In this document: one piece after another, positions 1,023 to 58,306 of the stretch
How the letters are laid out: each line of letters opens with the position of its first letter
Position numbering within the stretch: position 1 is the stretch's first letter
Source: a virus
Taxonomy: Duplodnaviria; Caudoviricetes
Direction: 5' to 3' (one strand)
DNA length: 58,619 nucleotides
IMG/VR virus record: IMGVR_UViG_3300036900_000065
Coordinates: 1 to 58,619 of that record
The notes under the pieces: model-generated
Databases searched by the model: none
What the model was told of the DNA's origin: nothing
What the model saw: only the letters and a program-made list of their open reading frames with translations
Program-made: the position numbers and the translations under genes

Positions 1023-1103
1023 ATTGCCCGACCGGCGAACAGTGGCTTGCTCCAAGGTCGGGCGATGGGGGTGCGGGGATAGGGAGGCTCCGCACCCTTT
1101 TCT
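1023..1103 (+). ncRNA. Candidate anti-RBS small RNA / 3' UTR element (two stem-loops, the second terminator-like)
   Basis: 11-bp stem 1023-1033/1056-1066 with loop containing GGCTTGCTCC (1044-1053); second stem 1067-1078/1088-1099 followed by a T-rich tail; G-U pairs favour the + strand. Confidence 0.55.
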
Positions 1104-4444: not shown

Positions 4445-4730
4445 CCCCGCCTATCTCAAGTGGTTGCGGGCGCAGCGCTGCGCCTGCGGCTGCCTGCGGG
4501 GACCGCCATCGGACGCCGCGCATCTGCGCGCCTCATCGCCCGAATATGATAAGCCACTGACCGGCATGGGCGCGAAGCCAGACGATAAGTGGGCCTTGCC
4601 GCTCAACCACTGGTGCCATATGCGCCAGCACGCCCATTGGGGCGAACTGCAATGGTGGAAGGAGCGCGGCGTCGCCGACCCCTTCGCCCTCTGCATCGAG
4701 TACTATCAACGGTTTAAGGAGCATGGATGA
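4407..4730 (+). CDS. DUF968/HNH-like putative nuclease
   Basis: YLKWLRAQRCACGC...AAH...GMGAKPDD.WALPL..WCH..QH. Confidence 0.75.
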   Translation: MKAVRQRRPRATDPAYLKWLRAQRCACGCLRGPPSDAAHLRASSPEYDKPLTGMGAKPDDKWALPLNHWCHMRQHAHWGELQWWKERGVADPFALCIEYYQRFKEHG

Positions 4731-5896: not shown

Positions 5897-5985
5897 CCGA
5901 TGAGAGACTTCGCGCCCCAGCCGGTGCCCGTGCGGCCTGCCTTGGGACGACTGCCCGCTGAAAGACTGGATAAGAGGAGCAAGCG

Positions 5986-6120
5986 ATGACGACATGGGAT
6001 TGGCTGGGAATTGCAGCCGGGGCGTTCGCCCTGATCTGCGTTTGCCTGCCCTGCAAATACGACCCCGCGATCCGGTGGAAGGAACGGCTCGAAGGCTGGC
6101 CAAAGCGAGATGACCGATGA
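5986..6120 (+). CDS. 44-aa membrane peptide (not in the ORF track)
   Basis: GGAGCAAGC at 5976; MTTWDWLGIAAGAFALICVCLPCKYDP...; stop overlaps the next ATG. Confidence 0.6.
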   Translation: MTTWDWLGIAAGAFALICVCLPCKYDPAIRWKERLEGWPKRDDR

Positions 6121-14435: not shown

Positions 14436-14447
14436 CGCGCTTCTCCC

Positions 14448-16299: not shown

Positions 16300-16805
16300 C
16301 AGGCGGCTCCCCGCAAATCGTCCCAGAGGTCGGCGTAGCGAAGCTCGATGGTCGGTTCCGGCCCGCGATAGATCGTCACGCCCACGTCGATCCGGTCGAT
16401 GTCGGTCTTCTCCGCCAGCACGTCGATCCGCGATGCGATCTTGTTGTCGACGAACGGCCGCATGGCGTCCCGCGTCCAGCCGTCCGCGCGCGATAGCGTC
16501 GAGCCTTTCTCCGCCGTCGCCCCGACGATCTTGGCCCGCTTCAAGAGCCACAGCAGGCTCCCGACCGGCCAGCCGCCCCATATCTCCTCCGCGTCCATGT
16601 CGGCCCACCAGCCCCTGCGGTCGGTGCTGTCGGGATCGGGCAAGTCCTCGCTGGCCGGGGCGAGCGCGTCGGTGCCCAGCGCGATGATCACCGCCGTCTG
16701 CAGGTCGTAGCCGTCCGCGATCAGGTTCTGGTCGGTCATCAGCCAGTTCAGCGTCACCGCATAGGCCGGGAAGTCGAGTTGTTGCAGATAGCGAATGTCG
16801 CTCAT
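16299..16805 (-). CDS. Mu gp46-like baseplate protein
   Basis: LQTAVII.L.TD, DRRGWWAD, GSLLWLL.RAK. Confidence 0.9.
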   Translation of the reverse strand: MSDIRYLQQLDFPAYAVTLNWLMTDQNLIADGYDLQTAVIIALGTDALAPASEDLPDPDSTDRRGWWADMDAEEIWGGWPVGSLLWLLKRAKIVGATAEKGSTLSRADGWTRDAMRPFVDNKIASRIDVLAEKTDIDRIDVGVTIYRGPEPTIELRYADLWDDLRGAA

Positions 16806-17743
16806 GAGCAGGGGTCTCCCGCAAGCTGGATGGGCACGCTCGACCAGCAGCCGCCGCTGTCCACCCAGATCGCGTTGCCGCCGAACTTCATGTGGATGTG
16901 GGTCTGGTCGATCCGCAACGAGTGGTCATTGTCCTTGAACTGGCAGGCGATCTGGTCGCCCTTGATGATCACCTTGAAGCTGCCGCCGCTCTCGTTCAGC
17001 GTCCATGTGTTCGCCCCCTTGTCATAGGTCGCGACCGGGGTGTCGCCGCTCATGATCTGCACCTTGCTGGCGGTGCAGCGGACTTCGGTGTTGACCGTAT
17101 CGCCTTCGTGCTTGTAGTCGGCGGTTCTCGCATCCGCCGCCGCACGCTGCTCCCGCGTCATCGGCGGCCCCGCCTTGGTGCCGACGCCGGGGCGCTCCTG
17201 CGCCGTCTTGACCACATGGCGCAGCGACACCATGCGCTGCTGCGGTTCGCTCTTGCCGGTCAGCTTGCCGTCGCGGTCGCGCAGCATCTTGCCGCCCGGA
17301 GCGGTGCCTTGGCCGTCGTCATCGAGCGACAGGAGGAACAGGCCCGCGCGCCTGAGCAGGGTCATCTGCCCTTGGTCGTCGTATTGCGCGTTCTCCCCCG
17401 GCTTCATTCCCATGGGCCGGTGCCGCCGGTCGTCGATGCCGATGATCACCGGATGGTTGCGCTGGCCGCCGAGAAAGAGCGCGATGCCCTCCGCCGCCGG
17501 TCCCTTGGGCTGCTCGACCCCGCCGATGCTGCCCGCCTGCTGCTTGTCCGGCTCGTCGCGCGGCAAAGGCACGGACGAGAAGCCGAACGACTGAATGCGC
17601 TCGACCGCCTTCCGCATGTCCGAGTTCATCCCGTCGATGAACATCTCCTGCATCATCTTGAGATCGTCGCCGACGTTGAGCGTCACGCGCGCCGCCATGT
17701 GCATGATGCGGCCCGACATTTCGTTGAGGCTGTTGCGGTTCAT
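16802..17743 (-). CDS. Baseplate spike, Mu gp45-like
   Basis: ERIQSFGFSSVP, GGQRNHPVII..DDRRHRP..MKPGE.AQYD. Confidence 0.85.
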   Translation of the reverse strand: MNRNSLNEMSGRIMHMAARVTLNVGDDLKMMQEMFIDGMNSDMRKAVERIQSFGFSSVPLPRDEPDKQQAGSIGGVEQPKGPAAEGIALFLGGQRNHPVIIGIDDRRHRPMGMKPGENAQYDDQGQMTLLRRAGLFLLSLDDDGQGTAPGGKMLRDRDGKLTGKSEPQQRMVSLRHVVKTAQERPGVGTKAGPPMTREQRAAADARTADYKHEGDTVNTEVRCTASKVQIMSGDTPVATYDKGANTWTLNESGGSFKVIIKGDQIACQFKDNDHSLRIDQTHIHMKFGGNAIWVDSGGCWSSVPIQLAGDPCS

Positions 17744-18993
17744 CGCCGGAATAGCCTCCGCCGCAAGTCCTGCACCCTGTCCGCCTCGGCCCGCGATGCG
17801 GCGTCCGACGCCTTCTTGTCTTTCTCGTCCTGCACCTGCTGCCCGTGGAAGATCATCGCCTCCTTTGCATAGTTGAAGCGCCCGTTCATGTGGATCGGCT
17901 TGACCATCGTCAGCGTGGTGGAGGTGCCCCCGTCCGTCTGCTCGTAGGTGCAGCCGGAGCATCCCATCACTTCGTCGTAGAGGATCAGCGACGGCGCGGT
18001 GACGGTGTAGTATTCGCCCGCCCGCCAGATGTCCTCGGATGCGTTGGCGTCCTTGAACCAGCCCTGCACCGTGATCTGCGCCTCGATCTCGCTGCCCTCG
18101 GTGAACACCTTCTCCATCTCGGCCCGCCGCTGGATGCCGTGCATGGTGTCGGCCACGTCGGCCACCACGACCAAGTGCCGGTTGCGCGACGAGGTGCCGT
18201 CGACCTGCGCCACCTGCTTGTTCTGCGGGTCGCCGTTAGCGCTGTCGCTGCCGATGTTCTGGCCGGTGGCGAAGATCTGACGATAGATCATCGGGTCGCG
18301 CGCTACGCAGTTGGCCGACTTGATGTTGATCCCCTCGACCAGCCAGCCCAGCGTGGTCGCCGGATGCTCGCCGATCAGCAGCAGGCCGCCATTGGCCTCC
18401 GACCCGATCACGATGGAGCGCATCTTGGCGTAACGCTCGATGGCCTGCATCGGGGTCTCCCCCGGCTGTACCTGAATGTTCTCGAACGGCGTGCCGTCCA
18501 CGTTGCCGCGCGTGTGGACGCCGATGTTGAGATGCGCCGACAAGTCCTTCGCCAGTTGCTCGACCGACTTGCCGTCATGCCCGTTGAGCTTGTCGAGCGG
18601 CACCGACGAGTTGACCAGATCGGCGGTGTCGCCGCAGCCGATCAGCCGCACGCCGTGCTGCTGCCCATCGAAGCCGACATGGCGCTCCGAGATGTATCCG
18701 AACACCGCAGGCGCGCCGCCAAGCAGCACCCGCACCACGTCGCCGGGGACGAATTGCGCGCCGTTGACGGTGAGCGGGATCGGCACCTCCTCGGTGCAGT
18801 CGAAGGTGAAGGTCGGGAACGCCTCGGTCCATTTCTGCTCGACGCGCACCGTCGTCCAGTTGGAGAAGAACTGACCCTTGACTTCGAGGCTCGCGATCTC
18901 CTTCGGCCCCGGCATCCGCTCATAGACGGGCGCGTCAATCGTGTCCTGCTCCGGGGCGGGCTTGTTGATGACGCGGAAGGGAATGTCGTTCAT
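17740..18993 (-). CDS. Baseplate hub, Mu gpP(gp44)-like
   Basis: WT.VRV, TADLV.SS, QPGET...IER; position; alternative GTG start at 18999. Confidence 0.85.
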   Translation of the reverse strand: MNDIPFRVINKPAPEQDTIDAPVYERMPGPKEIASLEVKGQFFSNWTTVRVEQKWTEAFPTFTFDCTEEVPIPLTVNGAQFVPGDVVRVLLGGAPAVFGYISERHVGFDGQQHGVRLIGCGDTADLVNSSVPLDKLNGHDGKSVEQLAKDLSAHLNIGVHTRGNVDGTPFENIQVQPGETPMQAIERYAKMRSIVIGSEANGGLLLIGEHPATTLGWLVEGINIKSANCVARDPMIYRQIFATGQNIGSDSANGDPQNKQVAQVDGTSSRNRHLVVVADVADTMHGIQRRAEMEKVFTEGSEIEAQITVQGWFKDANASEDIWRAGEYYTVTAPSLILYDEVMGCSGCTYEQTDGGTSTTLTMVKPIHMNGRFNYAKEAMIFHGQQVQDEKDKKASDAASRAEADRVQDLRRRLFRR

Positions 18994-35933: not shown

Positions 35934-35963
35934 TGGGCTTCGTAATTCTTTCGGAGCAAGCCA

Positions 35964-37001
35964 ATGCCTCTCACTTTCGGCACCGAGTTCGAATGCTTCA
36001 TCCCGCAAGGGACGACGCAGGCGATGCTCGCCGCCGCCATCAACGCTCGCCTTATCGCCCCGGCGACCTGCGCGGTGGAAGGATACAACCACAACGCCCG
36101 CCCTCATTGGAAGATCGTAACCGATGGCTCGCTGGGCGACTATTCGCGCGGGGTTGAGATCGTCTCCCCGATCCTCGAAGGCGAGGAAGGCATTGCGCAG
36201 ATGCGCCTTGTTTGCGAGGCCCTGACCGATTTCGGTTGCACGGTCAACCAGAGCGCGGGCTTCCACGTTCATGTAGGCGCGCGCGGCGAGGGCCTCGGCT
36301 TCTTCAAGAAGCTGGTGCGCCTTTACCAGACCTATGAGCGGGTGATCGACGGCATGATGCCGGTGTCTCGCCGCGCCTCGTCAAACACCTATTGCCGCTC
36401 GCTGGCGGGCGCAGCGCCTTCCGCGATCAGCGCCGCCCTCTCGGTTGGCGATCTGGCGCGCGTACTCACCCACGCCAGCCGCGCGATGGCCGACCGCTAC
36501 CACAAGGTCAACATCACCGCCTATTCGCGCCACTCGACGGTCGAGTTCCGGCAGCATTCGGGAACGGTCGATGCGACCAAGGCGGAGAACTGGGTGCGCC
36601 TTTGCCTCAAGATGGTCGAGACCGCCAAGCGGCCCGACGTGATCTTCGAGACGGCGACCGGCGCGGCCCCGCGCAACACGGCCCGCTATGGCTCGAAGCG
36701 CCACGCCATCATCGAGATGATTATGCGCGAGAACGGCGCGACCCGTACCGAGATCGTAGCAGCCACCAATTGGCCCTCGGTCTCGATTGCGCAGATTGCG
36801 GCCTCCTCGGGCCTCAACATTCTCACGACCCGCACGGGCCGCGAGACACGCTACTCGCTCAATGCGGTGGCGACCACCCCCACCCACCACGACGTTTCGG
36901 TGGATGGGTTCTGCACCTTGATCGGTGCGACCGATGCGGAGCGCGCCTACGTGCAGCGGCGCACCGCGAACCTCGGCGGCCCCGTAGCTTGGACCGCCTA
37001 A
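35964..37001 (+). CDS. Amidoligase (COOH-NH2 ligase type 2) with DUF3489-like wHTH insertion
   Basis: TFGTEFE, WKIVTDGSL, EIVSP.L, AGFHVHVG, RY.KVN, TVEFRQH. Confidence 0.9.
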   Translation: MPLTFGTEFECFIPQGTTQAMLAAAINARLIAPATCAVEGYNHNARPHWKIVTDGSLGDYSRGVEIVSPILEGEEGIAQMRLVCEALTDFGCTVNQSAGFHVHVGARGEGLGFFKKLVRLYQTYERVIDGMMPVSRRASSNTYCRSLAGAAPSAISAALSVGDLARVLTHASRAMADRYHKVNITAYSRHSTVEFRQHSGTVDATKAENWVRLCLKMVETAKRPDVIFETATGAAPRNTARYGSKRHAIIEMIMRENGATRTEIVAATNWPSVSIAQIAASSGLNILTTRTGRETRYSLNAVATTPTHHDVSVDGFCTLIGATDAERAYVQRRTANLGGPVAWTA

Positions 37002-37040
37002 TTGAGAAGGATGGATGCAATGCGACACGAAGATAAGACG

Positions 37041-37229
37041 ATGACGACGACCCCGGATCAATCGCTCGTAACATGGCGCGCGACGATGGGGTTCAATCAG
37101 CGCGAGGCGGCGGAAGCCTTGGGATGCTCCCCCGCCGATCTGGCCGATTGGGAGCGCGGCGCGGCCACCACGCCCCGCTTCATCAGGCTGGCGATGGCCG
37201 CGCTCGCTCTCGGCATCGAGGCCGAATGA
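37041..37229 (+). CDS. Small HTH protein (XRE/Cro-like)
   Basis: WR..MG.NQREAAEALGCS......WERG. Confidence 0.8.
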   Translation: MTTTPDQSLVTWRATMGFNQREAAEALGCSPADLADWERGAATTPRFIRLAMAALALGIEAE

Positions 37230-37276
37230 CCGCCCTACGCCCCGGAGGTCGCAAGCCTTCGGGGTCGAGGGGTCAG
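37227..37276 (+). repeat. Intergenic hairpin element, copy 1
   Basis: 3' arm CGGGGTCGAGGGGTCAG. Confidence 0.6.
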
Positions 37277-37288
37277 AAGGAGCAAGCC

Positions 37289-37918
37289 ATGTCACTTTAT
37301 TTCGCCTACGGATCGAACTTGAGCAAGGTGCAGATGCACTGCCGCTGCCCCGATGCGGTGCCGGTCGGATCGCTCACCCTCGAAGACTGGACGCTGGTGT
37401 TCCGCGCGGTGGCCGACATCGCGCCGTCGCCGGGAGACACCGTGCAGGGCGCGGTCTGGAAACTCTCGCCATCCGACGAGGCCAACCTCGACCAGTACGA
37501 GGGGGTGCGGAGCGGGATGTACCGCAAGGTCTATATTCCCATCGAGCCTTATGACTTCGCCGGGGATCATCACGAGGACATGCTGGTCTACGTGATGAAC
37601 TCGACCGGCATCATGCCGCCGACCATCTCCTACCTGCGCACGATCCGGGACGGCTATCGCGACTTCTCCCTGCCGATGGCCGCGCTCGACGATGCGGTGG
37701 AGCGATCCCACGATAACAAGGCCCCATCGCATGTCGAGCGGCAGCGCCGGATGCGGTCTGGCCGACTGCCGCTGGCCGCGCGGCCCAGCGCGATCCGGGC
37801 CGCGCAGGAAGCCGCCGCCAAGGCGGAGCGCGAGAAGAAGGCTCGCCCCCTGAGCAAGAAGGCCAAGCGGCGCGCCAAGGCGAAGGCCAAGGCCCGACGC
37901 GGGATTGGTTCGTACTGA
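37289..37918 (+). CDS. Gamma-glutamylcyclotransferase (AIG2-like) 1
   Basis: YFAYGSNL...QM..RCP, LD.YEG...Y; basic C-terminal tail. Confidence 0.9.
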   Translation: MSLYFAYGSNLSKVQMHCRCPDAVPVGSLTLEDWTLVFRAVADIAPSPGDTVQGAVWKLSPSDEANLDQYEGVRSGMYRKVYIPIEPYDFAGDHHEDMLVYVMNSTGIMPPTISYLRTIRDGYRDFSLPMAALDDAVERSHDNKAPSHVERQRRMRSGRLPLAARPSAIRAAQEAAAKAEREKKARPLSKKAKRRAKAKAKARRGIGSY

Positions 37919-37959
37919 CGCCCCCGACGCCCCGCCATCGCGCGGGGCTGAGGGGTCAG
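37915..37959 (+). repeat. Intergenic hairpin element, copy 2
   Basis: CTGAC..CCCC..GCCCCG / CGGGGCTGAGGGGTCAG. Confidence 0.6.
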
Positions 37960-38000
37960 AAGGGGCCGCTGATCGACCCCGCAAATCAGGAGCAAGGCGG

Positions 38001-38381
38001 ATGAAAATTTTCGTGTACGGAACCCTGCAGCGGGGACGCCGCAACCACCGCATCCTTGAGGCCGCGACGTTCATCGGCAGGGCGGTGACGGTGCGCAGGT
38101 TCGGGATGACCGACGTGGGCTTCCCGTTCATGCTGCCGTGGCAGGAGATCGCGCGCGTAGCTGGCGAGCTATTCGACATCGGCGACGACGCCGACATTCT
38201 CGCGGCGCTCGACCGCCTCGAAGGCGAAGGCCGGATGTACGACCGCGTGCAAGGCTTCGTTGAATGCAAAGGCCGACGCCATCTCGCGAGCTTCTATGTG
38301 AAGCGCCCGACCGGAAGGCCAGCGGGCCGCGAGGTGCCGGTCAACGAGCGCGGCCTCTTGGAATGGAGGGCCGCATCATGA
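38001..38381 (+). CDS. Gamma-glutamylcyclotransferase (AIG2/YtfP-like) 2
   Basis: IFVYGTLQRG..NH, V.GELF, LDRLEG...Y.R. Confidence 0.9.
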   Translation: MKIFVYGTLQRGRRNHRILEAATFIGRAVTVRRFGMTDVGFPFMLPWQEIARVAGELFDIGDDADILAALDRLEGEGRMYDRVQGFVECKGRRHLASFYVKRPTGRPAGREVPVNERGLLEWRAAS

Positions 38382-38584
38382 CGCGGCACGCCGACGCCAC
38401 CATCCGCCGATTGCGGGGTCAGCGCGGCCTCGCCGCCGAGATCGCGCGAGAATGCGGGATCAATCGGGCGGCGGTCTACCAATGGAGCAAGGTGCCCGCG
38501 CGGCACGCCCTCCGGGTCGCCCGCCTTCTCGACCTCGATGTACGGCGCGTTCGCCCTGACATTTTCGCCCCGCCGCGCGACTGA
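38378..38584 (+). CDS. Cro/YdaS-like HTH regulator
   Basis: IARECGINRAAVYQW.KVP...RPDIF; paralogous to 57953-58168. Confidence 0.8.
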   Translation: MTRHADATIRRLRGQRGLAAEIARECGINRAAVYQWSKVPARHALRVARLLDLDVRRVRPDIFAPPRD

Positions 38585-38590
38585 GAATGA

Positions 38591-38632
38591 TGATAAGGCC
38601 CCCTTGCCACTTTGGCCGCTCTCGGCCATGTG
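38591..38632 (+). promoter_or_regulatory. Early promoter with AAG-N5-CTT operator
   Basis: TGATAAG-GCCCC-CTTGCCA; TTGCCA-N17-CATGTG. Confidence 0.65.
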
Positions 38633-38671
38633 GAGGGGACGGGCATATCCCGCCCGCATAGGAGCAAGCCG

Positions 38672-39484
38672 ATGGAACTTTCTTTCACCAAGCACAACTC
38701 GCAATGGGTGATCCGCGCGGACGCCCATATCGCGCCCGGAACCACAATCGACGTTCCCAAGCGCGGCGGCGGATCGAAGCCGGTCACGATTGGCCCGCAG
38801 GTCGGGACCAAGTCTGGCGACTATCTTTTCGCCATCGCCACCCAGCCCCGCGCGCCCGCCGCCCCGACGCAGGCGGTCGGCGACCTCTCGGGCATCCTCG
38901 CCATTTTCAACACCGCCCGCCGCCATCTCAAGCACCCCTCGATTGTACTCGACGGGTTCCGGGTGGCGCGGGCCGGGGATAGCGCGCGCGAGCCGGGATC
39001 GCTGACGATCACCAGCGTGGAGCGCACCCATACCGACCGCTTCGGCAACGACGCCCGCGACTGGTATGGCCGGGTGTCGCTCGACGGCACGTTCCAGCCC
39101 GCGCGCCAAGCGCCCGCCGATCTCGGCGAGAAGCTGCGCGCCTTCGCCGCCGACCCCGCCGGGGTTGCCGCCGCCTATGGCCACCTGCACGGGCGCTGCT
39201 GCTTCTGCAACACCGCCCTGACCGACGAGCGATCCACCTCGGTCGGCTATGGCCCGATCTGCGCCGACCACTTCGGGTTGCCATGGGGCGCTCGCCCCGC
39301 GCCGACCCGCCGCGCGGCCTCGGCTGGCCCGCTCAACGACATCGAGGCCGCAGCCGACCGGCGCTTCGACGAGGCCGACGAGCGCGCCATGCAGGAGATG
39401 GAGGCGCGGGCGGATCGCGAGGGCACGATCCGCGACGAGCGCAACAAGCACCGCGCCCGCGCCATGATGGAGCGCCGCGCCTAA
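38672..39484 (+). CDS. DUF6011-like Zn-finger protein
   Basis: GRCCFC...LTDERS...GYGPICA. Confidence 0.8.
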   Translation: MELSFTKHNSQWVIRADAHIAPGTTIDVPKRGGGSKPVTIGPQVGTKSGDYLFAIATQPRAPAAPTQAVGDLSGILAIFNTARRHLKHPSIVLDGFRVARAGDSAREPGSLTITSVERTHTDRFGNDARDWYGRVSLDGTFQPARQAPADLGEKLRAFAADPAGVAAAYGHLHGRCCFCNTALTDERSTSVGYGPICADHFGLPWGARPAPTRRAASAGPLNDIEAAADRRFDEADERAMQEMEARADREGTIRDERNKHRARAMMERRA

Positions 39485-39487
39485 CCC

Positions 39488-39545
39488 ACGCCCCACTGGC
39501 GGCTTCCGCCCCGGCTCCGCGAGGAGACCGGGGCTGGGGCGTCAG
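39488..39545 (+). repeat. Intergenic hairpin element, copy 3
   Basis: ACGCCCCA..GCCCCGG / CGGGGCTGGGGCGTCAG; GCGA tetraloop. Confidence 0.6.
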
Positions 39546-39592
39546 GAACGGGCATGGCGCCCTTCCACATGCTCATAAGGAGCCAGACGACC

Positions 39593-39889
39593 ATGATGCT
39601 TATCCTCACCAAGATCGACCAGCGCGCCTATCGCGAGGACGAGGGCGATGCCCCGCGCCTCGTCAAGGTCGCGATCCAGTCGGAGCGCATCCGCTGCTTC
39701 AACCCCCGCCGCGAGGGCGCGGGCACCCGCCTGACCTTCGCCGATGGCGGCGGCTTCGCGGTTCAGGAGGACGGCGCGGCCATCCTCGCCATGCTCGGCG
39801 AGACAGCCGGGGCGCGCGAATATGCGACGGCCCCGGTCGCTCCGATCACCGTGGCAGCGCCCGCCCCGGAAGGCGAGGCCCTCAACTAA
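39593..39889 (+). CDS. Hypothetical protein
   Basis: AAGGAG RBS. Confidence 0.7.
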   Translation: MMLILTKIDQRAYREDEGDAPRLVKVAIQSERIRCFNPRREGAGTRLTFADGGGFAVQEDGAAILAMLGETAGAREYATAPVAPITVAAPAPEGEALN

Positions 39890-39951
39890 AGCCATCGCCC
39901 GCCGCGCATCCCTTTCGGGGTGCGCGGCCCGACCGTTTGGGAGCAAGCCGA

Positions 39952-40554
39952 ATGAGCCAGCACTACGTCCTCGACCTCCAATGCCCGCGATGCGGGGCGC
40001 GGGGCGAGGCCATCGCGACCAAGCGCGACCTCCCGCCGCCGATCCCCTGCGAGGCCTGCGCCGCCGCCGACGAACCCGCCGAGATGGGGATCGTCAAGGT
40101 GACGGTGCGGGCCGGAAATGACGAAGGAGCAAAGCAAATGAGATATGTTCTTATCAATCCGGTCCTGCGCACCGCCACGGCGGGCGACTACGCCACCCTC
40201 CAAGACGCGGAGGTTGCGGCGGGCCTCGACCCCAACAAGGTCGATCACGGGATGCTCACCCGCAGCATCGGTTACGTGGTTTATGAGTTCGGGCTGTTCG
40301 AGCCGCCCGCCCAACAGCACTACTTCGCCATGGGCCGCTCGCTGATCGCGGGCGCGGCGGTCCTCTACGGCGTCGACGCGTGGGGCGAGAGCGTCAACCT
40401 GCACCGCTCGACCATTCCCGACATCCGATGGTTCCTCGGCGCGAACGATGTCGAGGCCGCGATTGAGGCGGGCGAGATCATCCGCCCGACCACCTCCATC
40501 AATGGCGAAGTGACGTGGCGCTGGCCGGACGCCCACCCATGGAGGCCGCGATGA
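39952..40554 (+). CDS. Zn-ribbon protein in frame with a second gene starting at 40138
   Basis: CPRC..CEAC; two RBS/ATG pairs (39940/39952 and 40126/40138). Confidence 0.65.
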   Translation: MSQHYVLDLQCPRCGARGEAIATKRDLPPPIPCEACAAADEPAEMGIVKVTVRAGNDEGAKQMRYVLINPVLRTATAGDYATLQDAEVAAGLDPNKVDHGMLTRSIGYVVYEFGLFEPPAQQHYFAMGRSLIAGAAVLYGVDAWGESVNLHRSTIPDIRWFLGANDVEAAIEAGEIIRPTTSINGEVTWRWPDAHPWRPR

Positions 40555-40754
40555 GCCTGTCCAAAGAGGAGGAGCTTCGCGCCGCCGCCAAGATGATTGC
40601 GCTGCTCGATCAGGCCACCGCCGCGATGCAGGACGACAATCTGCTCCTCGCGCTCAAGCTGATCGTGCAGGCGCACGACATCGCGGACACCCTGCCGATC
40701 AAGAAGGATCGCCGCCCCGGCCCTCACAAATCTGTGGAGGGCGGGAATGTTTGA
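40551..40754 (+). CDS. Hypothetical protein
   Basis: GGAGG RBS; coupled. Confidence 0.6.
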   Translation: MSLSKEEELRAAAKMIALLDQATAAMQDDNLLLALKLIVQAHDIADTLPIKKDRRPGPHKSVEGGNV

Positions 40755-41097
40755 CCTTAAGCGGCCATGCGCCTCCTGCCCGTTCCGCAAAGGCAAGGGC
40801 AGCGCCTTTCGCCTCACCGCGCGGCGGCTGGCCGAGATACGGCGCAGCGTCTCGTTCCAATGCCACAAGACCGTCGACTACGACGCATGGGACGACGACA
40901 TCAGGCGGCAGGGCGACCGGCCCCAGCAATGCGCGGGCCTGATGGCGGTGCTGCATCGGCAGCGCGAGCAGAACCAGATCACGCAGGTGGCGGTGCGGAC
41001 AGGCGTTCTCGATCCCGCCCAACTCGACCCCAAGGGCGAGGCCTATGCGACGTGGGCCGAAGCCTGCCGCGCCCATCTGAAAGGCGTCGAACCATGA
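40747..41097 (+). CDS. Cys-rich phage protein
   Basis: PCASCPFR, FQCHKT, QCAG. Confidence 0.75.
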   Translation: MFDLKRPCASCPFRKGKGSAFRLTARRLAEIRRSVSFQCHKTVDYDAWDDDIRRQGDRPQQCAGLMAVLHRQREQNQITQVAVRTGVLDPAQLDPKGEAYATWAEACRAHLKGVEP

Positions 41098-41561
41098 GCC
41101 ATATCCGGGGTTCCTTCCTCGCCATGCAGGCCGCGTTCGGCCCAATGCCACGCGTCGAGTTCATGCTGGCGCACGGGCGCGAATACAAGGTCGGCCCGCA
41201 CAGCTATTCGCTGCGGCGCGGCCCGCCCAACCAGTGCTACGCCAACGCCGGGGCGCTCGCGCTTGATCTCGACCATCTGACCTACGTCGAGGGCCAGATA
41301 CTGGTGTGCGGCCTGCCGCTCGACCACGCATGGTGCGTCGACGAGCAGGGGATCGTGGTCGAGCCGACGATCCGCGATCCGGATCACGTCAGCGAGTTCT
41401 ACGGCGTGCCGTTCCGCACCGACTATCTGCTCAAGGCGGTGCTGCGGAACAAGATGTGGGGCGTCCTCGACGCGATGACCTCGCCCAAGACCGCGACCAA
41501 GCTATACGAGCTTGGCCTCGACGCGGGGCAGGCGTGGCTCACCGACCGGAGGCGGGCATGA
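41094..41561 (+). CDS. Hypothetical protein, possible papain/transglutaminase-like fold
   Basis: CY.NA, YVEG, HAWC, EPT motifs. Confidence 0.65.
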   Translation: MSHIRGSFLAMQAAFGPMPRVEFMLAHGREYKVGPHSYSLRRGPPNQCYANAGALALDLDHLTYVEGQILVCGLPLDHAWCVDEQGIVVEPTIRDPDHVSEFYGVPFRTDYLLKAVLRNKMWGVLDAMTSPKTATKLYELGLDAGQAWLTDRRRA

Positions 41562-41797
41562 TCGCGCGCCTTCTGTTCATCGCCCTTATGCTTGCGGCCC
41601 CGGATGAGGCCGGGGCGGGCCAGCGGACGATCTATGGGGCCGATGGCCGCGCCGTTGGCCGCGAGGCCGCCGACAGCCAAGGCAATACGACCCTTTACGG
41701 GGCCGATGGGCGGGTTGAGGGCCGATCCTCTGCCTCCGGGCGCACCACCACCTTTTATGGCGCGGATGGGCGGCGGGTGGGCGCTGTGCGCGAATAA
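41558..41797 (+). CDS. Small secreted protein with 3 YGADGR repeats
   Basis: Signal-like N-terminus; GGAGG RBS. Confidence 0.7.
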   Translation: MIARLLFIALMLAAPDEAGAGQRTIYGADGRAVGREAADSQGNTTLYGADGRVEGRSSASGRTTTFYGADGRRVGAVRE

Positions 41798-41800
41798 GCC

Positions 41801-41860
41801 CAGCCCCTCCCCCAAGCAGCCCCGGCGCGCCCGCCAAGGTCGCCGGGGCTGGGGCGTCGG
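41801..41860 (+). repeat. Intergenic hairpin element, copy 4
   Basis: AGCCCCGGCG / CGCCGGGGCT; 3' arm CGGGGCTGGGGCGTCGG. Confidence 0.6.
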
Positions 41861-41890
41861 AACCATCCCGGTTCCGATTGGAGCAAGCGA

Positions 41891-42385
41891 ATGGAAAAGC
41901 TCAACACCGAAACGCACTACGTTCTGAAAAAAGACCCCTCGGTCAGAGTGATCACCGCCGATTTTATCCGGGTCGATGTTACGCAGAACATCATCAACAG
42001 CGCCGCCCCAAGCCACTCTGCACGGTGTTTTGCCGCCCTCTCCGTCAAGGAGCTTGGCGCGAGCAGCATCCGCGTCACCAAGGACACAATCGCATTCAAT
42101 CTTCTGCACCTACGGGAGCGCCGCGTTTACACGATGCCCGCGATTGCCGCCCTGCATATCGAGCAGTTCGACACCGACGCGGAAAAATATGGCCCGGAAG
42201 TCGCGCGGGCCAACCAGAAGCCGTTCTCGTTCATCCTGCAACGGCCAGCCAAAGCGGAGATCACTCGGATTGCTTCCAAGCGCGGCCCAGACAAGGAGCC
42301 GCGCAAGCGACAGGCCAATCAGGGGGTGCGGTTCTGCGTTCGCAGATCGCGCGGCCACCGCATCATTGAGGTCAAACCAGAATGA
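41891..42385 (+). CDS. Hypothetical protein
   Basis: GGAGCAAGC RBS; somewhat lower GC. Confidence 0.7.
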   Translation: MEKLNTETHYVLKKDPSVRVITADFIRVDVTQNIINSAAPSHSARCFAALSVKELGASSIRVTKDTIAFNLLHLRERRVYTMPAIAALHIEQFDTDAEKYGPEVARANQKPFSFILQRPAKAEITRIASKRGPDKEPRKRQANQGVRFCVRRSRGHRIIEVKPE

Positions 42386-42921
42386 GCGCGCGCGCCGACC
42401 GCCAATGCGGCGATTGCCAATTGTGCTGCAAGCTCCTCCCCGTCCGCTCGCTCGGCAAAGGATCGAACGAGCGCTGCCGCCATCAGCAGCACCACAAGGG
42501 CTGCAAGGTCTACGCGAAGCTGTTCCAGATCGCGCCCGAATGCCGCCTCTGGAATTGCCGCTGGCTGGTCGATGACGCCGGGGACACCACGCGCCCGGAT
42601 CGCGCGCACTACGTCATTGACGTCATGCCCGACTTTATCAGGGCGGATGACGGCGACGGCCAGATCGTCGAGGTGCCGGTCGTGCAGGTGTGGGTGGACC
42701 CGAAATTCCCCGACGCCCATCGCGACCCCGCCCTGCGCGCGTGGCTCGACCGGGAGGGACAGGTGGCCCTGATCCGCTACAATAGCGGCGACGGCTTCTG
42801 CCTGTTCCCGCCCAGCCGCATGGCGAGCGGCGAATGGATGGAGAAGGGCAGCATCAACGACGGCGCGCCGACCCACTCGTTCGCGGAGGTCATGCGCGTC
42901 CTCGGGGATGAGATCCGATGA
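42382..42921 (+). CDS. YkgJ-like Cys-cluster protein
   Basis: CGDCQLCCK...C.H....GC..Y...C..W.C.WL. Confidence 0.75.
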   Translation: MSARADRQCGDCQLCCKLLPVRSLGKGSNERCRHQQHHKGCKVYAKLFQIAPECRLWNCRWLVDDAGDTTRPDRAHYVIDVMPDFIRADDGDGQIVEVPVVQVWVDPKFPDAHRDPALRAWLDREGQVALIRYNSGDGFCLFPPSRMASGEWMEKGSINDGAPTHSFAEVMRVLGDEIR

Positions 42922-42956
42922 AGCCCGTCCTCCGGGGATGAGATCCGATGAAGCCC
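42898..42956. repeat. Tandem ~30-bp duplication of a gene junction
   Basis: GTCCTC(C)GGGGATGAGATCCGATGAAGCCC x2. Confidence 0.9.
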
Positions 42957-44057
42957 GGACCCACCCTGATCGACACGCTCTACCGCGCCAGCTTCCGCAA
43001 CGAGCGCATCCCCGGCTGGACCGACAACGGTCTATGGCGGGATGCGCTGCGGCGCGCCAAGCGCTTCGTGCTCGATGACGAGATGTCCACCTTCCTCGGG
43101 GAACTCGGCACGCAGGCGTTCGTCAACAGCCGCACCAGCCGCACCATCGAGGTCGAGCAGCGGCGCATGGTCGCGATCCGCAACCGCAAGGTCGAGGCGC
43201 TGCGGATGGGCGCGCGCCTGCCGTCCGAGATCACATGGATCGAGTACAATCTGCGCAATTGTCAGGTGCGCTCCAACGAATTGCTCGGGCGCAAGGCGAT
43301 CCCCAGCGAGATGCCGAAATACGAGGGCTGGCTCCTGATGCGCCATCCCAAGTTGGAGACGGCGTTCTCCGCCGCCGTCGTCTCGCATGACCCGGACGTC
43401 GACCACGGCGACGGCTTCGACATCTGGACCTTTCCGGTCGGGCTGGCGTGGACCGCCGACATGGACACGGTGCTGCCGTGGCGCTCGCTGGCCTTCGCTG
43501 AGGCCAGCGACCGGCCCAGCGAAGTCTCGACCGGCCTCACCGGCTATCATAGCGACCGCTGCGGCTTCGTCTACCACCCGCTGGTCGAGACGCCGAACCG
43601 GCCCAAGGTGGTTGCGAACCTGCTGGCCGAATGGTCCGGGGTTCAGCGCCGCATGTGGGCGCTCTTGGCGACGATCAACGATCTGCCGGTCGAATTGCGC
43701 GAGGTGCGCGCCGCCAAGGGCTTCGTGGCCAAGGGAGCCTATCGGCGCTTCCTCGACCACCGCACGGTGACGCTCACGGTCCCGGTCGCCAAGTACACCA
43801 AGGTGATCCGCTCGGCCCTCGCCATCGCCCACCGCCGGGGCGGGCCGGTGCGCGAGCATTGGCGGCGGGATTGGCGGCGGCCCCTGTCCGCCTTGTGCGA
43901 ACATGAGTGGGGCGCGGACGAGAAGCATATGTTCTGCAATCTGTGCCGGGGCCGCAAGATTTGGGTTCACGAGCATACGCGGGGCGACACCACGCGGGGC
44001 TTCGTCAGCCACGACTTCAATGTCACCCATGGCGACGACAAACGGAGCAGGCGTTGA
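42948..44057 (+). CDS. Conserved phage hypothetical protein
   Basis: C-terminal VREHWR...W.HEH.RGD...G motif. Confidence 0.75.
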   Translation: MKPGPTLIDTLYRASFRNERIPGWTDNGLWRDALRRAKRFVLDDEMSTFLGELGTQAFVNSRTSRTIEVEQRRMVAIRNRKVEALRMGARLPSEITWIEYNLRNCQVRSNELLGRKAIPSEMPKYEGWLLMRHPKLETAFSAAVVSHDPDVDHGDGFDIWTFPVGLAWTADMDTVLPWRSLAFAEASDRPSEVSTGLTGYHSDRCGFVYHPLVETPNRPKVVANLLAEWSGVQRRMWALLATINDLPVELREVRAAKGFVAKGAYRRFLDHRTVTLTVPVAKYTKVIRSALAIAHRRGGPVREHWRRDWRRPLSALCEHEWGADEKHMFCNLCRGRKIWVHEHTRGDTTRGFVSHDFNVTHGDDKRSRR

Positions 44058-44257
44058 GGAATTTCAAAGACTACCGTCATCACGAACTGGTGAAGTGCTT
44101 CAATTGCTTCGCGCCGCTCTACGGGGTCGATCCGAAGCCGAACGATGGCGCATCGGGGCGATGGAGCCAGTGGTGCGATGCGTGCCGGACCTCGACCTTC
44201 TATGACATCCGCAGCGAGGTTAGCGGGCACCGCGTAGTGCCGCGCAAGCGGGCCTGA
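44054..44257 (+). CDS. Zn-ribbon protein
   Basis: TTG start overlapping the upstream stop; CFNC..CDAC. Confidence 0.5.
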   Translation: MRNFKDYRHHELVKCFNCFAPLYGVDPKPNDGASGRWSQWCDACRTSTFYDIRSEVSGHRVVPRKRA

Positions 44258-44303
44258 TAGGCTGCGGCCCGCGAGGCGGGCGTTCTAGAGGGGACACATT
44301 CCC

Positions 44304-44534
44304 ATGATTTCGCTCAGCGGTCTTCTGCTCGGCGTCATCAATATCGCCATCGTGGTGGCGATATTGGTGCTGATCGGCGCGCTCATCGTCATGGTCGCCA
44401 AGTGGTTCCAGTGGCCTATCGACTGGAACGTGCAGCGGCTCTACCTGCTCGTCGTGGCGCTGATCGCGCTCTACATGATCGTCGCGCTGCTGCTCGGCCT
44501 GCCCGCCGTCCACATCATCGGCGAGCGCTACTGA
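44304..44534 (+). CDS. Two-TM membrane protein
   Basis: Highly hydrophobic; GAGGGG RBS. Confidence 0.75.
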   Translation: MISLSGLLLGVINIAIVVAILVLIGALIVMVAKWFQWPIDWNVQRLYLLVVALIALYMIVALLLGLPAVHIIGERY

Positions 44535-44565: not shown

Positions 44566-45351
44566 TCACCGCCGCTCGGGAGGGTGTCCCGCCGCTGCCT
44601 GCTTCCCACGCGCAATCGGTTCGCCCTTATACATTCCGGCCCCGCGCGCCGCAATTTCCGAGAACGGAACCTCGGGCACGGCGAGGCGGGCGCGCGCCGC
44701 CGGATTGAGGAAATAGATATAGCGCAGCATGAACCCCGGCAACGGCTCGCCCGCACTCGACCACAGGCCGCCGTTCTTCGAGAAATGGGCGAAGCGATCC
44801 TTGCCCGTGACTTGCGACATCTTGTGCCCGATGGTGCCGTCCGCGAAGCGCAGCACGTCCTTGTTGACCTTGATCTTCGTCAGGACGAAGCCCGACGCCC
44901 GATAGATCGTGCCGTCGCCGCACTGGCAGGCGTCCGCGAACGACACCACCCACTCGATGTGCGGATACGCCTTGCGGATCATCCTGAGCGCGATCCCCAA
45001 GGCGCGGCTCTCCGAATTGCGCGGCAGCACGTCCGAGAACGCCATCCGGTTTAATTCGAGAAAGGCGTTCCAGCCGGTGTCGCGCACCAGACCGACCACG
45101 TTCGACTTGTCGAGCGACGGGCCGAACTGCATGGCCCCCTCAAGCCGCCCGTTCAGGAACACGCCCAGCGACAATTGCGAGTTGCGCACGAACTTGCCCG
45201 AATAGTGGATGCGCCGCACCAAGGCGTCCGCATCGCGCTTCTCGATGGGCGCGATGCGGATGTCCTTCGCGGCGGCGGGCCGGACGCTTGCAGTCGCCCC
45301 TACAGTTTGAAGCACGTCGGTTCGTGCTGGCCCATTGGTCATTGCGCTCAC
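44566..45351 (-). CDS. mom: Mom-like DNA adenine modification protein (GNAT fold)
   Basis: HYSGK, LELNRM..SD.LPRNSESR, SFAD..QC..GTIYRASGF. Confidence 0.85.
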   Translation of the reverse strand: MSAMTNGPARTDVLQTVGATASVRPAAAKDIRIAPIEKRDADALVRRIHYSGKFVRNSQLSLGVFLNGRLEGAMQFGPSLDKSNVVGLVRDTGWNAFLELNRMAFSDVLPRNSESRALGIALRMIRKAYPHIEWVVSFADACQCGDGTIYRASGFVLTKIKVNKDVLRFADGTIGHKMSQVTGKDRFAHFSKNGGLWSSAGEPLPGFMLRYIYFLNPAARARLAVPEVPFSEIAARGAGMYKGEPIARGKQAAAGHPPERR

Positions 45352-46071: not shown

Positions 46072-46797
46072 CTACCGCTCCGCCAGATAGGCCCGCGCCA
46101 GTTCCGCCAGCGCGTTGCCGTTCTGGTTCTTGTTGGCGTTCGCCTCCGATGGCGGCCCCAGCGCCAGCCCCGCCACCCGGATCGCCTCGGCCACCATGTC
46201 GGCCTGATGCGACAGCAGGAGGAACGTCATCTCGCGGAAGTCCGACCGCGCCCCCGTCGCCAGATCGGGCAGCGCCCCCAGCGCCTCGACCCCTATCGCC
46301 ATCTCGCGCAGGTCTTTCTCGTCGAAGCCCAGCGTGCCCAGCGCGAAGCCCTGATCGTACAGGTCGCTCAATTCGAGCCGCAACGTCTCCGCGTCCCAGC
46401 CCGCGTTCTCCGCGATCCGATTGTCCGCGATCACGTAGGCCCGCTTCTGCGCGTCCGTCCATCCGCGCGCCACCAGCACCGGGATCATCCCCGCCGGGAT
46501 GTCCTCGCCCGTCACCATTCGGATCACCCCCGGCGGACGCCCGTCCTCCCCGGCATAGATCAAATCGGCGGCCCGCACCCGCCCATGGCCCGCCACAATC
46601 TCCCCGGAGGGGTCGATCAGCACCGGCATCGTCCAGCCGAACTCGCGCATCGACCCCGCAATTTCCAGCACCTGCTCCGCCGTATGAGTGCGCGAATTGC
46701 GCGCATAGGGCCGCAATTCCGCAATCGGGCGGCCCTCCAGCGGCCCGCTGCCGCCGATTATCGTCGCAATTTCAAGGTTTTGCTCGGTCGTTTCCAT
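46072..46797 (-). CDS. ParB/Srx-like domain protein
   Basis: L.PYARNSRTH, S..EFGW..PVL, IVAGHGR..AA, YVIADNR..E.AGWD. Confidence 0.88.
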   Translation of the reverse strand: METTEQNLEIATIIGGSGPLEGRPIAELRPYARNSRTHTAEQVLEIAGSMREFGWTMPVLIDPSGEIVAGHGRVRAADLIYAGEDGRPPGVIRMVTGEDIPAGMIPVLVARGWTDAQKRAYVIADNRIAENAGWDAETLRLELSDLYDQGFALGTLGFDEKDLREMAIGVEALGALPDLATGARSDFREMTFLLLSHQADMVAEAIRVAGLALGPPSEANANKNQNGNALAELARAYLAER

Positions 46798-47571: not shown

Positions 47572-48129
47572 TCACGCATGGAGGCGCGCGGATAGGGCCG
47601 CCAATTCCACGGGCGTCAAATCCCACGCAGCCACGACCACCCACATGTCGCTGCGCCCGATGCGCCGCAGCAGCAGCGGATCGACCGGCGGCTTGCGCGA
47701 CCATTCGGCCTCAAACAGGATGTGATAGTTCTCGATCCCGCGCTTGGGTCGCAGATGGATTGGGACGAGCGGCGTCTGCGCCTCGAACGACCATCGCCCC
47801 GGCGGCGTCTTGAACCCCGGCCACGGGACCGCGATCTTCCGGCTGCGCCATCCGCGCCCGTCGTGGAAATGCGCCTCGTCGCGATCCCAGCGCAAGATGC
47901 AGACCGGCGCGTCGGCCCGCACGATGGCGAGCTTCGGCAACCCTTCCGCGTTCAATCCTGCTTCGACAATCGCGCGGCCCGCGTTGATGATGACCTTGCC
48001 CTGCGCGATGAGTTGATAGGCGCGCTGGACTTCACGGTCGATGGGCTGGCTGTAGTGCTGGTGCGTCTTGTAGGCGCGATACAGTTCCAGCGCCTTGCCG
48101 CGTTCGATCTCGATGGGCTGCACGTCCAT
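47572..48129 (-). CDS. Conserved phage hypothetical protein
   Basis: AAGGAGG RBS; PKLAI.RAD, YHILFEAEW, DPLLL, WDLT. Confidence 0.75.
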   Translation of the reverse strand: MDVQPIEIERGKALELYRAYKTHQHYSQPIDREVQRAYQLIAQGKVIINAGRAIVEAGLNAEGLPKLAIVRADAPVCILRWDRDEAHFHDGRGWRSRKIAVPWPGFKTPPGRWSFEAQTPLVPIHLRPKRGIENYHILFEAEWSRKPPVDPLLLRRIGRSDMWVVVAAWDLTPVELAALSARLHA

Positions 48130-48150
48130 GGTCGCCTCCTTGGTGGATAT

Positions 48151-48233
48151 GGAAGGGGCGACGATTGCGGCACCGCCGCCCCCTCCTCGGTTGGCGCGCA
48201 GATGCGGAGCAAGCAGACATGCGCGCGGCCCGA
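48151..48233 (-). ncRNA. Second candidate anti-RBS stem-loop element
   Basis: Stem GCGCGCA/TGCGCGC with loop CTGCTTGCTCC, then a 14-bp GC stem; G-U pairs favour the - strand. Confidence 0.5.
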
Positions 48234-48235
48234 TC

Positions 48236-48553
48236 TCATGCGTCCGCCACCGCGCATTCAAGCGAGCAGTAGACGGCTGGCCCCTGATACGTCTTGCCGC
48301 AACGGTCGCAGGCGCGCGGCTCGAAGGCGTCGTCGACATAGGCGCTGATCGCGTCGGTCCACATCGCCGGGGATGTCCGCCGATAGCGGTGCGCGATCCT
48401 CGGCCCGACATAGATCGCCACCTCGCGTGCATTGCCCGCCCATGCGATGCACTCGTTCACCATGTAAGGCGTGCCGGGTTCGTAGCGGAAGGTCATCGTG
48501 TTCTCGGCCATGTCGTGCGTGACGCTGACCAGCCCCTGCTCGATTGCGATCAT
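48236..48553 (-). CDS. Hypothetical protein with C-terminal Zn finger
   Basis: CDRC...YCS.EC. Confidence 0.6.
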   Translation of the reverse strand: MIAIEQGLVSVTHDMAENTMTFRYEPGTPYMVNECIAWAGNAREVAIYVGPRIAHRYRRTSPAMWTDAISAYVDDAFEPRACDRCGKTYQGPAVYCSLECAVADA

Positions 48554-53371: not shown

Positions 53372-53424
53372 CCGACCCACGCAGACCGCCAATCCGGCAC
53401 CCTGCGTTGATAAGGAGCAAGGTA

Positions 53425-54456
53425 ATGACTGCAACTGCGACTGCGTCGGTATTGCAGGCCCCGGCCTACAATCTCGACGATCCCTCTACCCTCACCATCG
53501 ACCTGAACAATCCGAAGCCGAAGGAAATTCTTGCGATCAGCAAGACCTTCGAGGAGGCGATGCGCGCCAACCCCGACCCCGGCCCGCTGCCGGTCAACAC
53601 GGGCTGGCACGACATCACCCCCGCCATCGCGGTGAACCTCTTGCGGCGCAACTATCGCGGCGCGAACCGTTCGCTCGATGCGGCGACGGTGGTCTACTAC
53701 GCCATCCAGATGAAAGAGGGTGAATGGCGGGCCACGGGCCAGCCGATCATCCTCAACGTCGAGGGCGGACTGCTCGACGCCCAGCATCGCTTGTATGCGG
53801 GGCTGGTGTCTGGCGAAACGTTCAAGTCGTTCGTGGTGACGGATGTCGAAGCGCGCAGCGATATGTTCGCGTTCATCGACAATAGCAAGGCGCGCACCGG
53901 GGCGGATGCTTTGCGCACCGCTGGCTTCAACGGTGTGTCGCCCACCATCGCGAAGGTCTTGCGCTTCGCGGAGGAGATCCGGGTGGGCTTGTACAGCCCG
54001 ACCGGAGCCACTCGGCTGGCCCGCATCACCCCGGCTCACTTGATCCGGCTGGTGCAGACCTACCCGAACGTGCTGGCGGCATCGCGCTCGGCGGCCTCCG
54101 ATTGGGCCGATGCGGTCGACTACCTCGACGGTCGCAAGGAGGTGGTGGCCTACGTCGGTATGCGGATCACCGACGAGCATGACGACGCCTTGGCCGACGA
54201 GTTCATCGAGGACATTCTCGATGGCGAGACGGCCCGCGCGACGGACCATCCGATTGCGGCCTTCCGCAAGAAGATGGACGACAACAACCGCGCGGCGAAG
54301 AAGATGAAGCGGTCGGTGATGACCGCCTACATGATCCAAGCCTTCAATGCTTGGCATCTCCAGCAGACCTTGGGTCGCCGCTGGTGGTGGAACCCGCAAA
54401 ACGAAGCGTTCCCGGCCATCGTTGGCGCGGGGCCTGCTGCGCAAGCTGCGGAGTAA
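53425..54456 (+). CDS. ParB-like / DGQHR-type domain protein
   Basis: ITP..A..LL..N..NR, M..GEW...G.PI, LLDAQHRL.A. Confidence 0.75.
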   Translation: MTATATASVLQAPAYNLDDPSTLTIDLNNPKPKEILAISKTFEEAMRANPDPGPLPVNTGWHDITPAIAVNLLRRNYRGANRSLDAATVVYYAIQMKEGEWRATGQPIILNVEGGLLDAQHRLYAGLVSGETFKSFVVTDVEARSDMFAFIDNSKARTGADALRTAGFNGVSPTIAKVLRFAEEIRVGLYSPTGATRLARITPAHLIRLVQTYPNVLAASRSAASDWADAVDYLDGRKEVVAYVGMRITDEHDDALADEFIEDILDGETARATDHPIAAFRKKMDDNNRAAKKMKRSVMTAYMIQAFNAWHLQQTLGRRWWWNPQNEAFPAIVGAGPAAQAAE

Positions 54457-58261: not shown

Positions 58262-58306
58262 ACCAGAATTAGCGGGATTGGCCCGCTGCTATATCGGAGC
58301 AAGCAC

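Follow-up and report, generated by a model that had tools for sequence, protein, structure and literature searches.

The closest described counterpart of the sequences considered here is the start-associated sequence (SAS) of the Cluster K mycobacteriophages. The available text of Pope et al. (2011; PMC3203893) describes the SAS as a 13 bp sequence located 3–7 bp before gene starts, mostly ATG, which occurs in a single orientation and is absent from the host. In the same text each K1 phage is reported to carry one reverse copy of the SAS away from any start, with no interpretation offered for it, and the choice between an RNA and a protein as its partner was left undecided. The role of the SAS was still called unknown or unverified in the available portions of reports from 2024 and 2025 (PMC11373665, PMC12699233). 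When the genome of Anaya (JF704106) was examined at up to two mismatches, 17 SAS copies were found, of which 16 were forward and one was reverse. The reverse copy is located in the gp96–gp97 gap (record 59870–59882, corresponding to 39871–39883 of locus L181), and in the rightward sense RNA it forms the 10-nt loop of a predicted GCGCGG/CCGCGC hairpin, within a region that overall was not unusually stable (z -1.25).

Further counterparts are found among regulatory RNAs. In the c4 RNA of phages P1 and P7, loop sequences pair close to the icd/ant ribosome site. As far as the available descriptions go, c4 is, like the element proposed here, a phage antisense RNA that derives from an operon transcript and uses base pairing to repress translation of other genes; c4 however acts on one operon, whereas the proposed element would act on a tag shared by many genes. 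Judged by analogy, the P1 c4 RNA is the nearest of the regulators in its logic. DicF and other small RNAs from prophage operons or 3' untranslated regions contain a short seed followed by a terminator hairpin, and act in trans on ribosome-binding sites. Their layout at the end of, or inside, an operon transcript is shared with the element, but their seeds hit host genes with unrelated ribosome-binding sites, while here a private tag is repeated on the phage's own genes. The CI RNA of P4, which acts in immunity, arises by processing of the same transcript, and its pairing partners are complementary sites that recur in phage transcripts. It resembles the element as a small RNA directed against repeated complementary sites, and differs from it in that the pairing causes transcription termination and the targets are not ribosome-binding sites.

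The locus described here lies in a viral DNA stretch of 58,619 bases with ~66% G+C, the whole of which was analysed and is referred to as the window. Copies of a 9-nt tag, GGAGCAAGC, precede a set of gene starts in the window, and a two-hairpin element at 48151–48233 carries the exact complement, GCUUGCUCC. Like the SAS as characterized in the available text, this tag is short and asymmetric, contains a Shine-Dalgarno core, is positioned a few bases before the start codons (nearly always ATG) of some of the non-structural genes and keeps to one orientation. It may also be rare in the host, if the MAG with 12 copies in ~3.94 Mb outside the phage contig represents that host. The SAS consensus, GGGATAGGAGCCC, is 13 nt long and differs in sequence from the 9-nt tag, so the two are analogous without being homologous. 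The phages described here have a high G+C content and no relationship to Cluster K, and, in contrast to the latter, showed no ESAS-type 17-bp inverted repeat. Tags at gene starts and antisense control acting on ribosome sites are each known already, and the system described here would be a variant combining the two kinds. A search of the openly accessible literature for tag/anti-tag loop pairing in phages found nothing in print.

Gene-start tags in the window and its relatives

The two ends of the contig (1–246 and 58374–58619) repeat one another over 246 bases with one mismatch, which suggests that the genome is probably complete and either circular or terminally redundant, with ~58,373 bp of unique sequence. 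The IMG/VR record is classified as linear and 72% complete. The same phage, with a P0001 gene product that is 100% identical, is present as a 58,514-base contig (C135; L039/G009) in a MAG titled Casimicrobiaceae bacterium, and this bin may be a hint to the host or a binning artefact. The sequencing runs in which the phage was detected were DNA runs that point to rhizosphere and soil, with no RNA run among them. A minus-strand block runs from 52444 to 44566 and contains genes for primase and helicase, small genes, P0002, a gap, P0001, P0003 and the ParB-like and Mom-like genes; the last two, which close the replication block, are a sign that the phage may modify its own DNA. The segment 4411–4565 (+) was left as a gap by the gene caller, yet is coding-like for a Cys/His-rich HNH-like protein that runs into 4566–4730, and the true start of the ORF at 4566–4730 probably lies upstream. 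An Rfam 15 scan of both strands of the whole window gave no matches at the gathering score, and a tRNA scan of the window found none. The positions of the features are given in Table 1.

A genome-wide count against shuffled sequence, which the initial annotation had put forward as a check, gave nine copies of GGAGCAAGC on either strand of the window compared to 0.69 expected, and none of 100 shuffles reached nine. Seven of the nine exact copies are on the plus strand, 1–3 nt 5' of the ATG of plus-strand genes. Because these seven copies are at different gene starts, GGAGCAAGC is identified as a start-associated tag and not as the ribosome-binding site of one gene. The single "first early gene" that had been named as the target is accordingly replaced by seven exact tagged starts, or about 12 when one mismatch is allowed, the additional starts including those of the RecT gene, of genes at 5618, 38001 and 53425, and of two minus-strand genes. 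The tag is composed of the Shine-Dalgarno sequence GGAG followed by the spacer CAAGC, which departs from the usual anti-Shine-Dalgarno complement; this we take to be the general complement, which may not be that of the host. At 53414–53427 (+) the one-mismatch form GGAGCAAGG-ta-ATG suggests ATG 53425 as the true start of a gene that had been called from TTG 53452.

The region 35964–44534 (+) consists of accessory cassettes that encode an amidoligase (PF12224), two GGACT/AIG2-like proteins, a DUF6011 protein and products without assigned function. In front of most of these genes there is a GC-rich hairpin followed by the tag, a layout that looks like a set of separately insulated units. In the 4.0-Mb MAG that contains the same phage on one contig, nine tag copies are on that contig and 12 are in the remaining ~3.94 Mb, indicating that tag use belongs to the phage rather than to that MAG's genome.

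The phage group was reached by a terminase search that gave ~230 relatives in IMG/VR, and of 18 large records G010, G025 and G011 were enriched for GGAGCAAGC; G028, G029 and G033 came from later searches. The number of tag copies was nine in the window, six in G010, four in G011, 10 in G025, eight in G028, three in G029 (in 11 kb) and five in G033, and the copies in the relatives are located at the starts of both orthologous and unrelated genes. Six genomes together contained 32 exact start copies, all of which lie 0–4 nt before the start codon, with ATG in 30 of the 32 and with unconserved flanks. G008 contains five copies in coding sequence at 54% G+C and is for that reason not regarded as a tag user. 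The syntenic relative G006 (L019–L021; ~70–77% nucleotide identity) uses another, looser start motif, GGAG-NN-GACC-ATG, which is shared by at least five accessory gene starts in reverse-complement 14233–18922 of that record. No convincing mirror copy of this motif was found in the non-coding DNA of G006, indicating that tags can exist without an anti-tag.

Table 1. Window coordinates of the genes, tags and hairpins described in the text
Feature	Position	Strand	Remarks
P0002, gene upstream of element	48236..48553	-	105 aa, Cys-rich C-terminus, stop codon 48236-48238
P0001, gene downstream of element	47572..48129	-	185 aa, no assigned function; relatives align from residue 1
P0001 RBS GGAGG	48135-48139	-	
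Anti-tag 9-mer	48206..48214	-	GCUUGCUCC on minus-strand RNA, GGAGCAAGC on plus strand
Hairpin 1	48187..48233	-	interrupted stem, 15 pairs, 7-nt apical loop
Hairpin 2	48151..48186	-	GC-rich stem, 15 bp incl. 3 G-U pairs
ParB-like nuclease or methyltransferase-type gene	46072-46797	-	end of replication block
Mom-like DNA modification gene	44566-45342	-	end of replication block
Gene X (phrog_1362)	58307 to contig end, continues 3-1016	+	no assigned function; spans contig junction
Type B hairpin, 3' untranslated region of gene X	1023..1066	+	GCCCGACC/GGUCGGGC stem, 22-nt loop with GCUUGCUCC at 1045-1053
Terminator hairpin with T-run after type B hairpin	1067..1103	+	-21.1 plus vs -15.7 minus strand
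Tag GGAGCAAGC before gene X	58296..58304	+	2 nt 5' of ATG 58307
Tag before amidoligase gene (35964-37001)	35953..35961	+	
Tag before GGACT/AIG2-like gene (37289-37918)	37279..37287	+	
Tag before DUF6011 gene (38672-39484)	38661..38669	+	
Tag before gene 39952-40554	39940..39948	+	no assigned function
Tag before gene 41891-42385	41880..41888	+	no assigned function
Tag before 43-codon ORF (5986-6117)	5976..5984	+	N-terminus looks hydrophobic

Fold and conservation of the anti-tag hairpins

The two copies of GGAGCAAGC that are left over, at 48206 and 1045, are both non-coding, both contained in hairpins and both oriented against co-directional flanking genes. As the copy at 48206–48214 opposes the local genes, it is GCUUGCUCC that is carried by the minus-strand transcript. 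The initial annotation had argued that two such copies were unlikely to arise by chance, and this was upheld: compared with the two anti-tag copies observed antisense to co-directional genes in non-coding DNA, dinucleotide shuffles of the non-coding sequence gave a mean of 0.05, with at least two copies in three of 5000. The raw count in this shuffle test was four, since two true tags that lie in divergent gaps each contribute a trivial complement. Chance is excluded as the origin of both the tag copies and the anti-tag copies.

The element is located in a non-coding gap (48130–48235) that has minus-strand genes on both sides, P0002 and P0001. Folding of the minus-strand RNA of 48130–48240 gave an MFE of -54.3 kcal/mol (z -2.55, with 2 of 200 shuffles as good) and two hairpins, in agreement with the fold originally described, an anti-RBS loop followed by a GC stem; the plus strand of the gap folded no better than shuffles (z -0.77). 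In hairpin 1, stem segments of 4 bp (outer), 7 bp (GCGCGCA/UGCGCGC) and 3 bp (inner) lead up to the 7-nt loop UUGCUCC, which leaves seven of the nine motif bases unpaired and two paired in the MFE structure. Loop display, defined as the motif centre lying in a hairpin loop with at least six enclosing pairs, was measured by Boltzmann sampling and gave P = 0.71 for the element in the window, compared to 0.02 with shuffled flanks. Hairpin 2 resembles a terminator, with a GC-rich stem that had been given as 14 bp and is one pair longer, but it is not followed by a U-tract in the window, and a terminator scan of the window called no canonical terminators. Specificity of the G-U pairs for the minus strand, as had been claimed, holds for hairpin 2 only (-31.0 kcal/mol on the minus strand vs -18.7 on the plus strand), while hairpin 1 has no strand specificity (-10.9 vs -13.3 kcal/mol). 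The sequence 48205–48215 matches 58295–58305, at the start of gene X, over 11 nt; the cover of the AUG of this gene that the initial annotation had described in addition is not conserved, and the 9-mer alone is kept. One contig from four DNA runs spans 48128–48302 with four differences.

The copy at 1045 belongs to a second type of hairpin, here called type B, the element at 48151–48233 being type A. The stem of the type B hairpin is 8–11 bp long and its loop reads ...cagugGCUUGCUCC..., and in the MFE structure the motif is partly paired within a weak inner helix. The similarity of 1023–1103 to the type A element that was pointed out at the start was confirmed, since a stem-loop with GCUUGCUCC and a terminator hairpin are present there and the stem sequences differ. 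Type B counterparts with other stems were found in G028 and in G029, in the latter ~90 nt past the stop of the gene X homologue, and no type B copy was present in the 3' untranslated region of gene X in either G010 or G011. At 1290–1370 of G025 (L128) an anti-tag, GCUUGCUCCGGG, pairs in cis with CCCGGAGCAAG located 57 nt downstream to form an 11-bp stem. This anti-tag lies 3' of a tag-led gene, and its 11-bp pairing with GGAGCAAG is ~20 nt ahead of the ribosome site of the next gene; the stem may be a self-contained version of the tag/anti-tag pairing.

The exact anti-tag 9-mer was found in gene sense, in non-coding DNA and at the same place in the window, G010, G011, G025, G028, G029 and G033. 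Type A elements follow a replication-block gene that is P0002-like or g48550-like (P0002 homologues in G010 and G011) and precede a P0003/P0001 homologue or one inserted gene. In gene sense, a hairpin with GCUUGCUCC at its tip is separated by 1–21 nt from a second hairpin that is long and GC-rich. When six elements were aligned with MAFFT (A1), all 9/9 motif columns were invariant at a mean column identity of 48%, and G033, which is outside A1, also has the exact 9-mer. An enclosing hairpin with different stem sequences was found for five of the seven type A elements (not G011 and G029) and three of the four type B elements.

Loop display over the six type A elements was 0.71, 0.72, 0.05, 0.96, 0.04 and 0.93, the two low values being those of G011 and G029, in which the loop hairpin is weak. 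When the flanks were shuffled the means were 0.00–0.11, and the fraction of shuffles that reached the observed value was 0.00–0.06. The anti-tag seed is thus single-stranded by prediction in four of the six elements (display 0.71–0.96) and poorly displayed in two. Hairpin 2 was more stable in gene sense in all six elements, with a summed energy of -196.7 vs -159.2 kcal/mol, while the corresponding sums for hairpin 1 of -70.6 vs -72.5 revealed no strand asymmetry.

The co-occurrence of element and tag was determined by reading the region upstream of P0003 in 20 records. The exact element was present in seven lineages, all of which are tag users with 3–10 copies. In 12 records no element was found outside coding sequence even at one mismatch, and these contain 0–3 tag copies; G036, which is without the element, has three copies, all of them coding. 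A 33-kb fragment, G034, is intermediate, with the variant loop GUUUGCUCC and a single exact tag copy at a start, and this loop would still pair with the tag via G-U wobble. In the P0003 tree the seven tag users do not form one clade: the label needs five changes, and well-supported branches force at least two, although phage mosaicism makes this count of independent events a rough one. The closest P0001 relative, L022 (89% amino acid identity), has kept the GC hairpin and the RBS, and hairpin 1 is absent from it. No comparable gap and no motif were found among the P0001 relatives of ~50% identity (seven viral loci, 16 metagenome loci besides L022 and three genome loci besides the MAG copy).

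Several other comparisons were made with the element. The exact 23-nt hairpin pattern gave no matches in viral contigs, and a blastn search of the phage collection gave one irrelevant 53-nt match. A single-sequence covariance model (R1) found G010 (E 0.018), G034 (0.06), G011 (0.13) and G033 (0.71) and missed G025, G028 and G029; it was rejected as an element detector, since it also scores unrelated GC hairpins of the window, and because it is not discriminating the alignment A4 was not used for pair counts. The consensus of the six elements obtained with MAFFT and RNAalifold (-3.98 kcal/mol) was likewise rejected, as the element stems are out of register and the consensus is meaningless. A 14-nt match of the hairpin arm at 4519–4532 is probably coding sequence and was judged to be chance.

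The proposed pairing and alternative readings

The reading preferred here, with a probability of about 0.55, is that the sense-strand RNA of the element acts as an anti-tag and pairs with tagged ribosome sites. The narrower claim, that the element is a conserved RNA hairpin whose loop is selected to mirror the tag, is held with good confidence. In the full mechanism the sense (minus-strand) transcript of the replication operon would carry the element as a conserved RNA module, in which the loop of hairpin 1 would present GCUUGCUCC and pair in trans with the tags on the mRNAs of gene X, the amidoligase gene, the GGACT genes, the DUF6011 gene and others. Such pairing would cover the ribosome-binding sites and set the translation of the tagged genes as a group, the effect being most likely repression, as a brake. 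Hairpin 2, a strong stem, would end or stabilise the RNA, which could act within the operon mRNA or as a shorter piece with its end at hairpin 2. A second loop of this kind would be supplied by the hairpin at 1045, in the gene X 3' untranslated region. Beyond the observed structure, hairpin 2 strand, 9-mer conservation and co-occurrence, we infer the pairing in trans, its repressive sign and its time of action. The timing put forward by the initial annotation, in which an RNA made with the middle/late transcript would shut off early translation, is conjectural; in G010 and G011 a replication-operon gene itself bears the tag.

Complementarity is exact over 9 nt at seven gene starts, extending to 11 nt at gene X. 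The 9-bp duplex between loop and tag was calculated at -15.6 kcal/mol compared to -3.7 kcal/mol for GGAG/CUCC, suggesting that an exposed loop could out-compete the ribosome for the tag. When the GC-rich stem arms were included, duplex energies did not separate tagged from untagged genes and were set aside.

The pairing might be real and yet serve to regulate the replication operon itself, in that abundant mRNAs bearing the tag, or a tag within the same transcript, would bind the loop and alter the folding, termination or processing of hairpin 2 and so the read-through into P0001, P0003 and beyond. This is unlikely, but has several features in its favour: the loop hairpin is always 1–21 nt before a strong terminator-like stem, the start codon of the next gene is ~20 nt past hairpin 2 in lineages where the element abuts P0001 or P0003, U-rich tails follow hairpin 2 in G011, G028, G029 and G034, and one gene of the same replication operon is itself tag-bearing in G010 and G011. 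Such a role fits poorly with the window, where hairpin 2 has neither a U-tract nor a called terminator, and with the type B copies, which are in other transcripts; there is also no sequence sign of alternative folds of hairpins 1 and 2.

A function of the opposite strand was considered less probable still. The antisense transcript would present a loop with GGAGCAAGC, and would serve as a decoy, titrating away ribosomes or a protein that binds the tag and resembling decoys of the CsrB/RsmZ type. Hairpin 1 folds about equally on that strand, both in the window and over the six elements, and at the DNA level the element motif is oriented like most tag copies. The preference of hairpin 2 for gene sense in 6/6 elements argues against this reading, as do the flanking genes, which require sense transcription across the element, and the only promoter-like site on the antisense strand is a weak 9/12 match 240 nt away.

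It is quite improbable that GGAGCAAGC is a site for a phage protein that binds double-strand DNA, with the reverse copies as more sites and the hairpins as incidental. The 9-mer is conserved in both orientations, and for Cluster K the available text of the authors left open whether the partner is a protein or RNA (PMC3203893). The position of the tag 0–4 nt before the start codon in 32/32 copies nevertheless points to translation, the stems around the reverse copies change in sequence yet keep pairing in eight of 11 elements, and the variant in G034 keeps the RNA pairing through wobble.

There is very little to recommend an ordinary plus-strand RBS for the 17-codon ORF at 48219, or the relic of a cassette start, since, although GGAGCAAGC-agac-ATG fits the tag pattern and has a hairpin upstream as at other cassette starts, the motif is followed within 4 nt by ATG, GTG or TTG in 0/6 related elements compared to 32/32 true start copies, a 4-nt spacing occurs in only 1/32 true starts, the ORF of 17 codons is antisense to P0002, and decay would not keep 9/9 bases in seven lineages with flanks that are 48% identical; the initial annotation had named this reading as one that would refute its own, and the ORF reading fails on the lack of a start codon after the motif in the relatives.

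Meaning for phage gene control

With respect to pairing between the anti-tag loop and tagged starts, this phage group offers a concrete candidate partner for a start tag, in the form of a hairpin loop with the exact complement that is kept while its surroundings change. In the records examined the exact loop was found only where the tag is used, and Anaya has a like layout. Private start tags together with a mirror-image hairpin loop may represent a general mode of phage regulon, in which one RNA loop switches a dozen unrelated genes and the Cluster K SAS does the same via its single reverse copy, a generalization that is offered tentatively and at somewhat less than even odds.

If the proposed anti-tag pairing is correct, one short RNA would control the translation of a set of accessory and early-type genes via a tag that is separate from the ribosome sites of the host. 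This would reveal a compact logic of viral gene control and would provide a ready-made orthogonal translation switch. The element is of interest as a candidate partner, open to test, for a class of phage motifs that lacks an explanation and of which the SAS has been noted since 2011.
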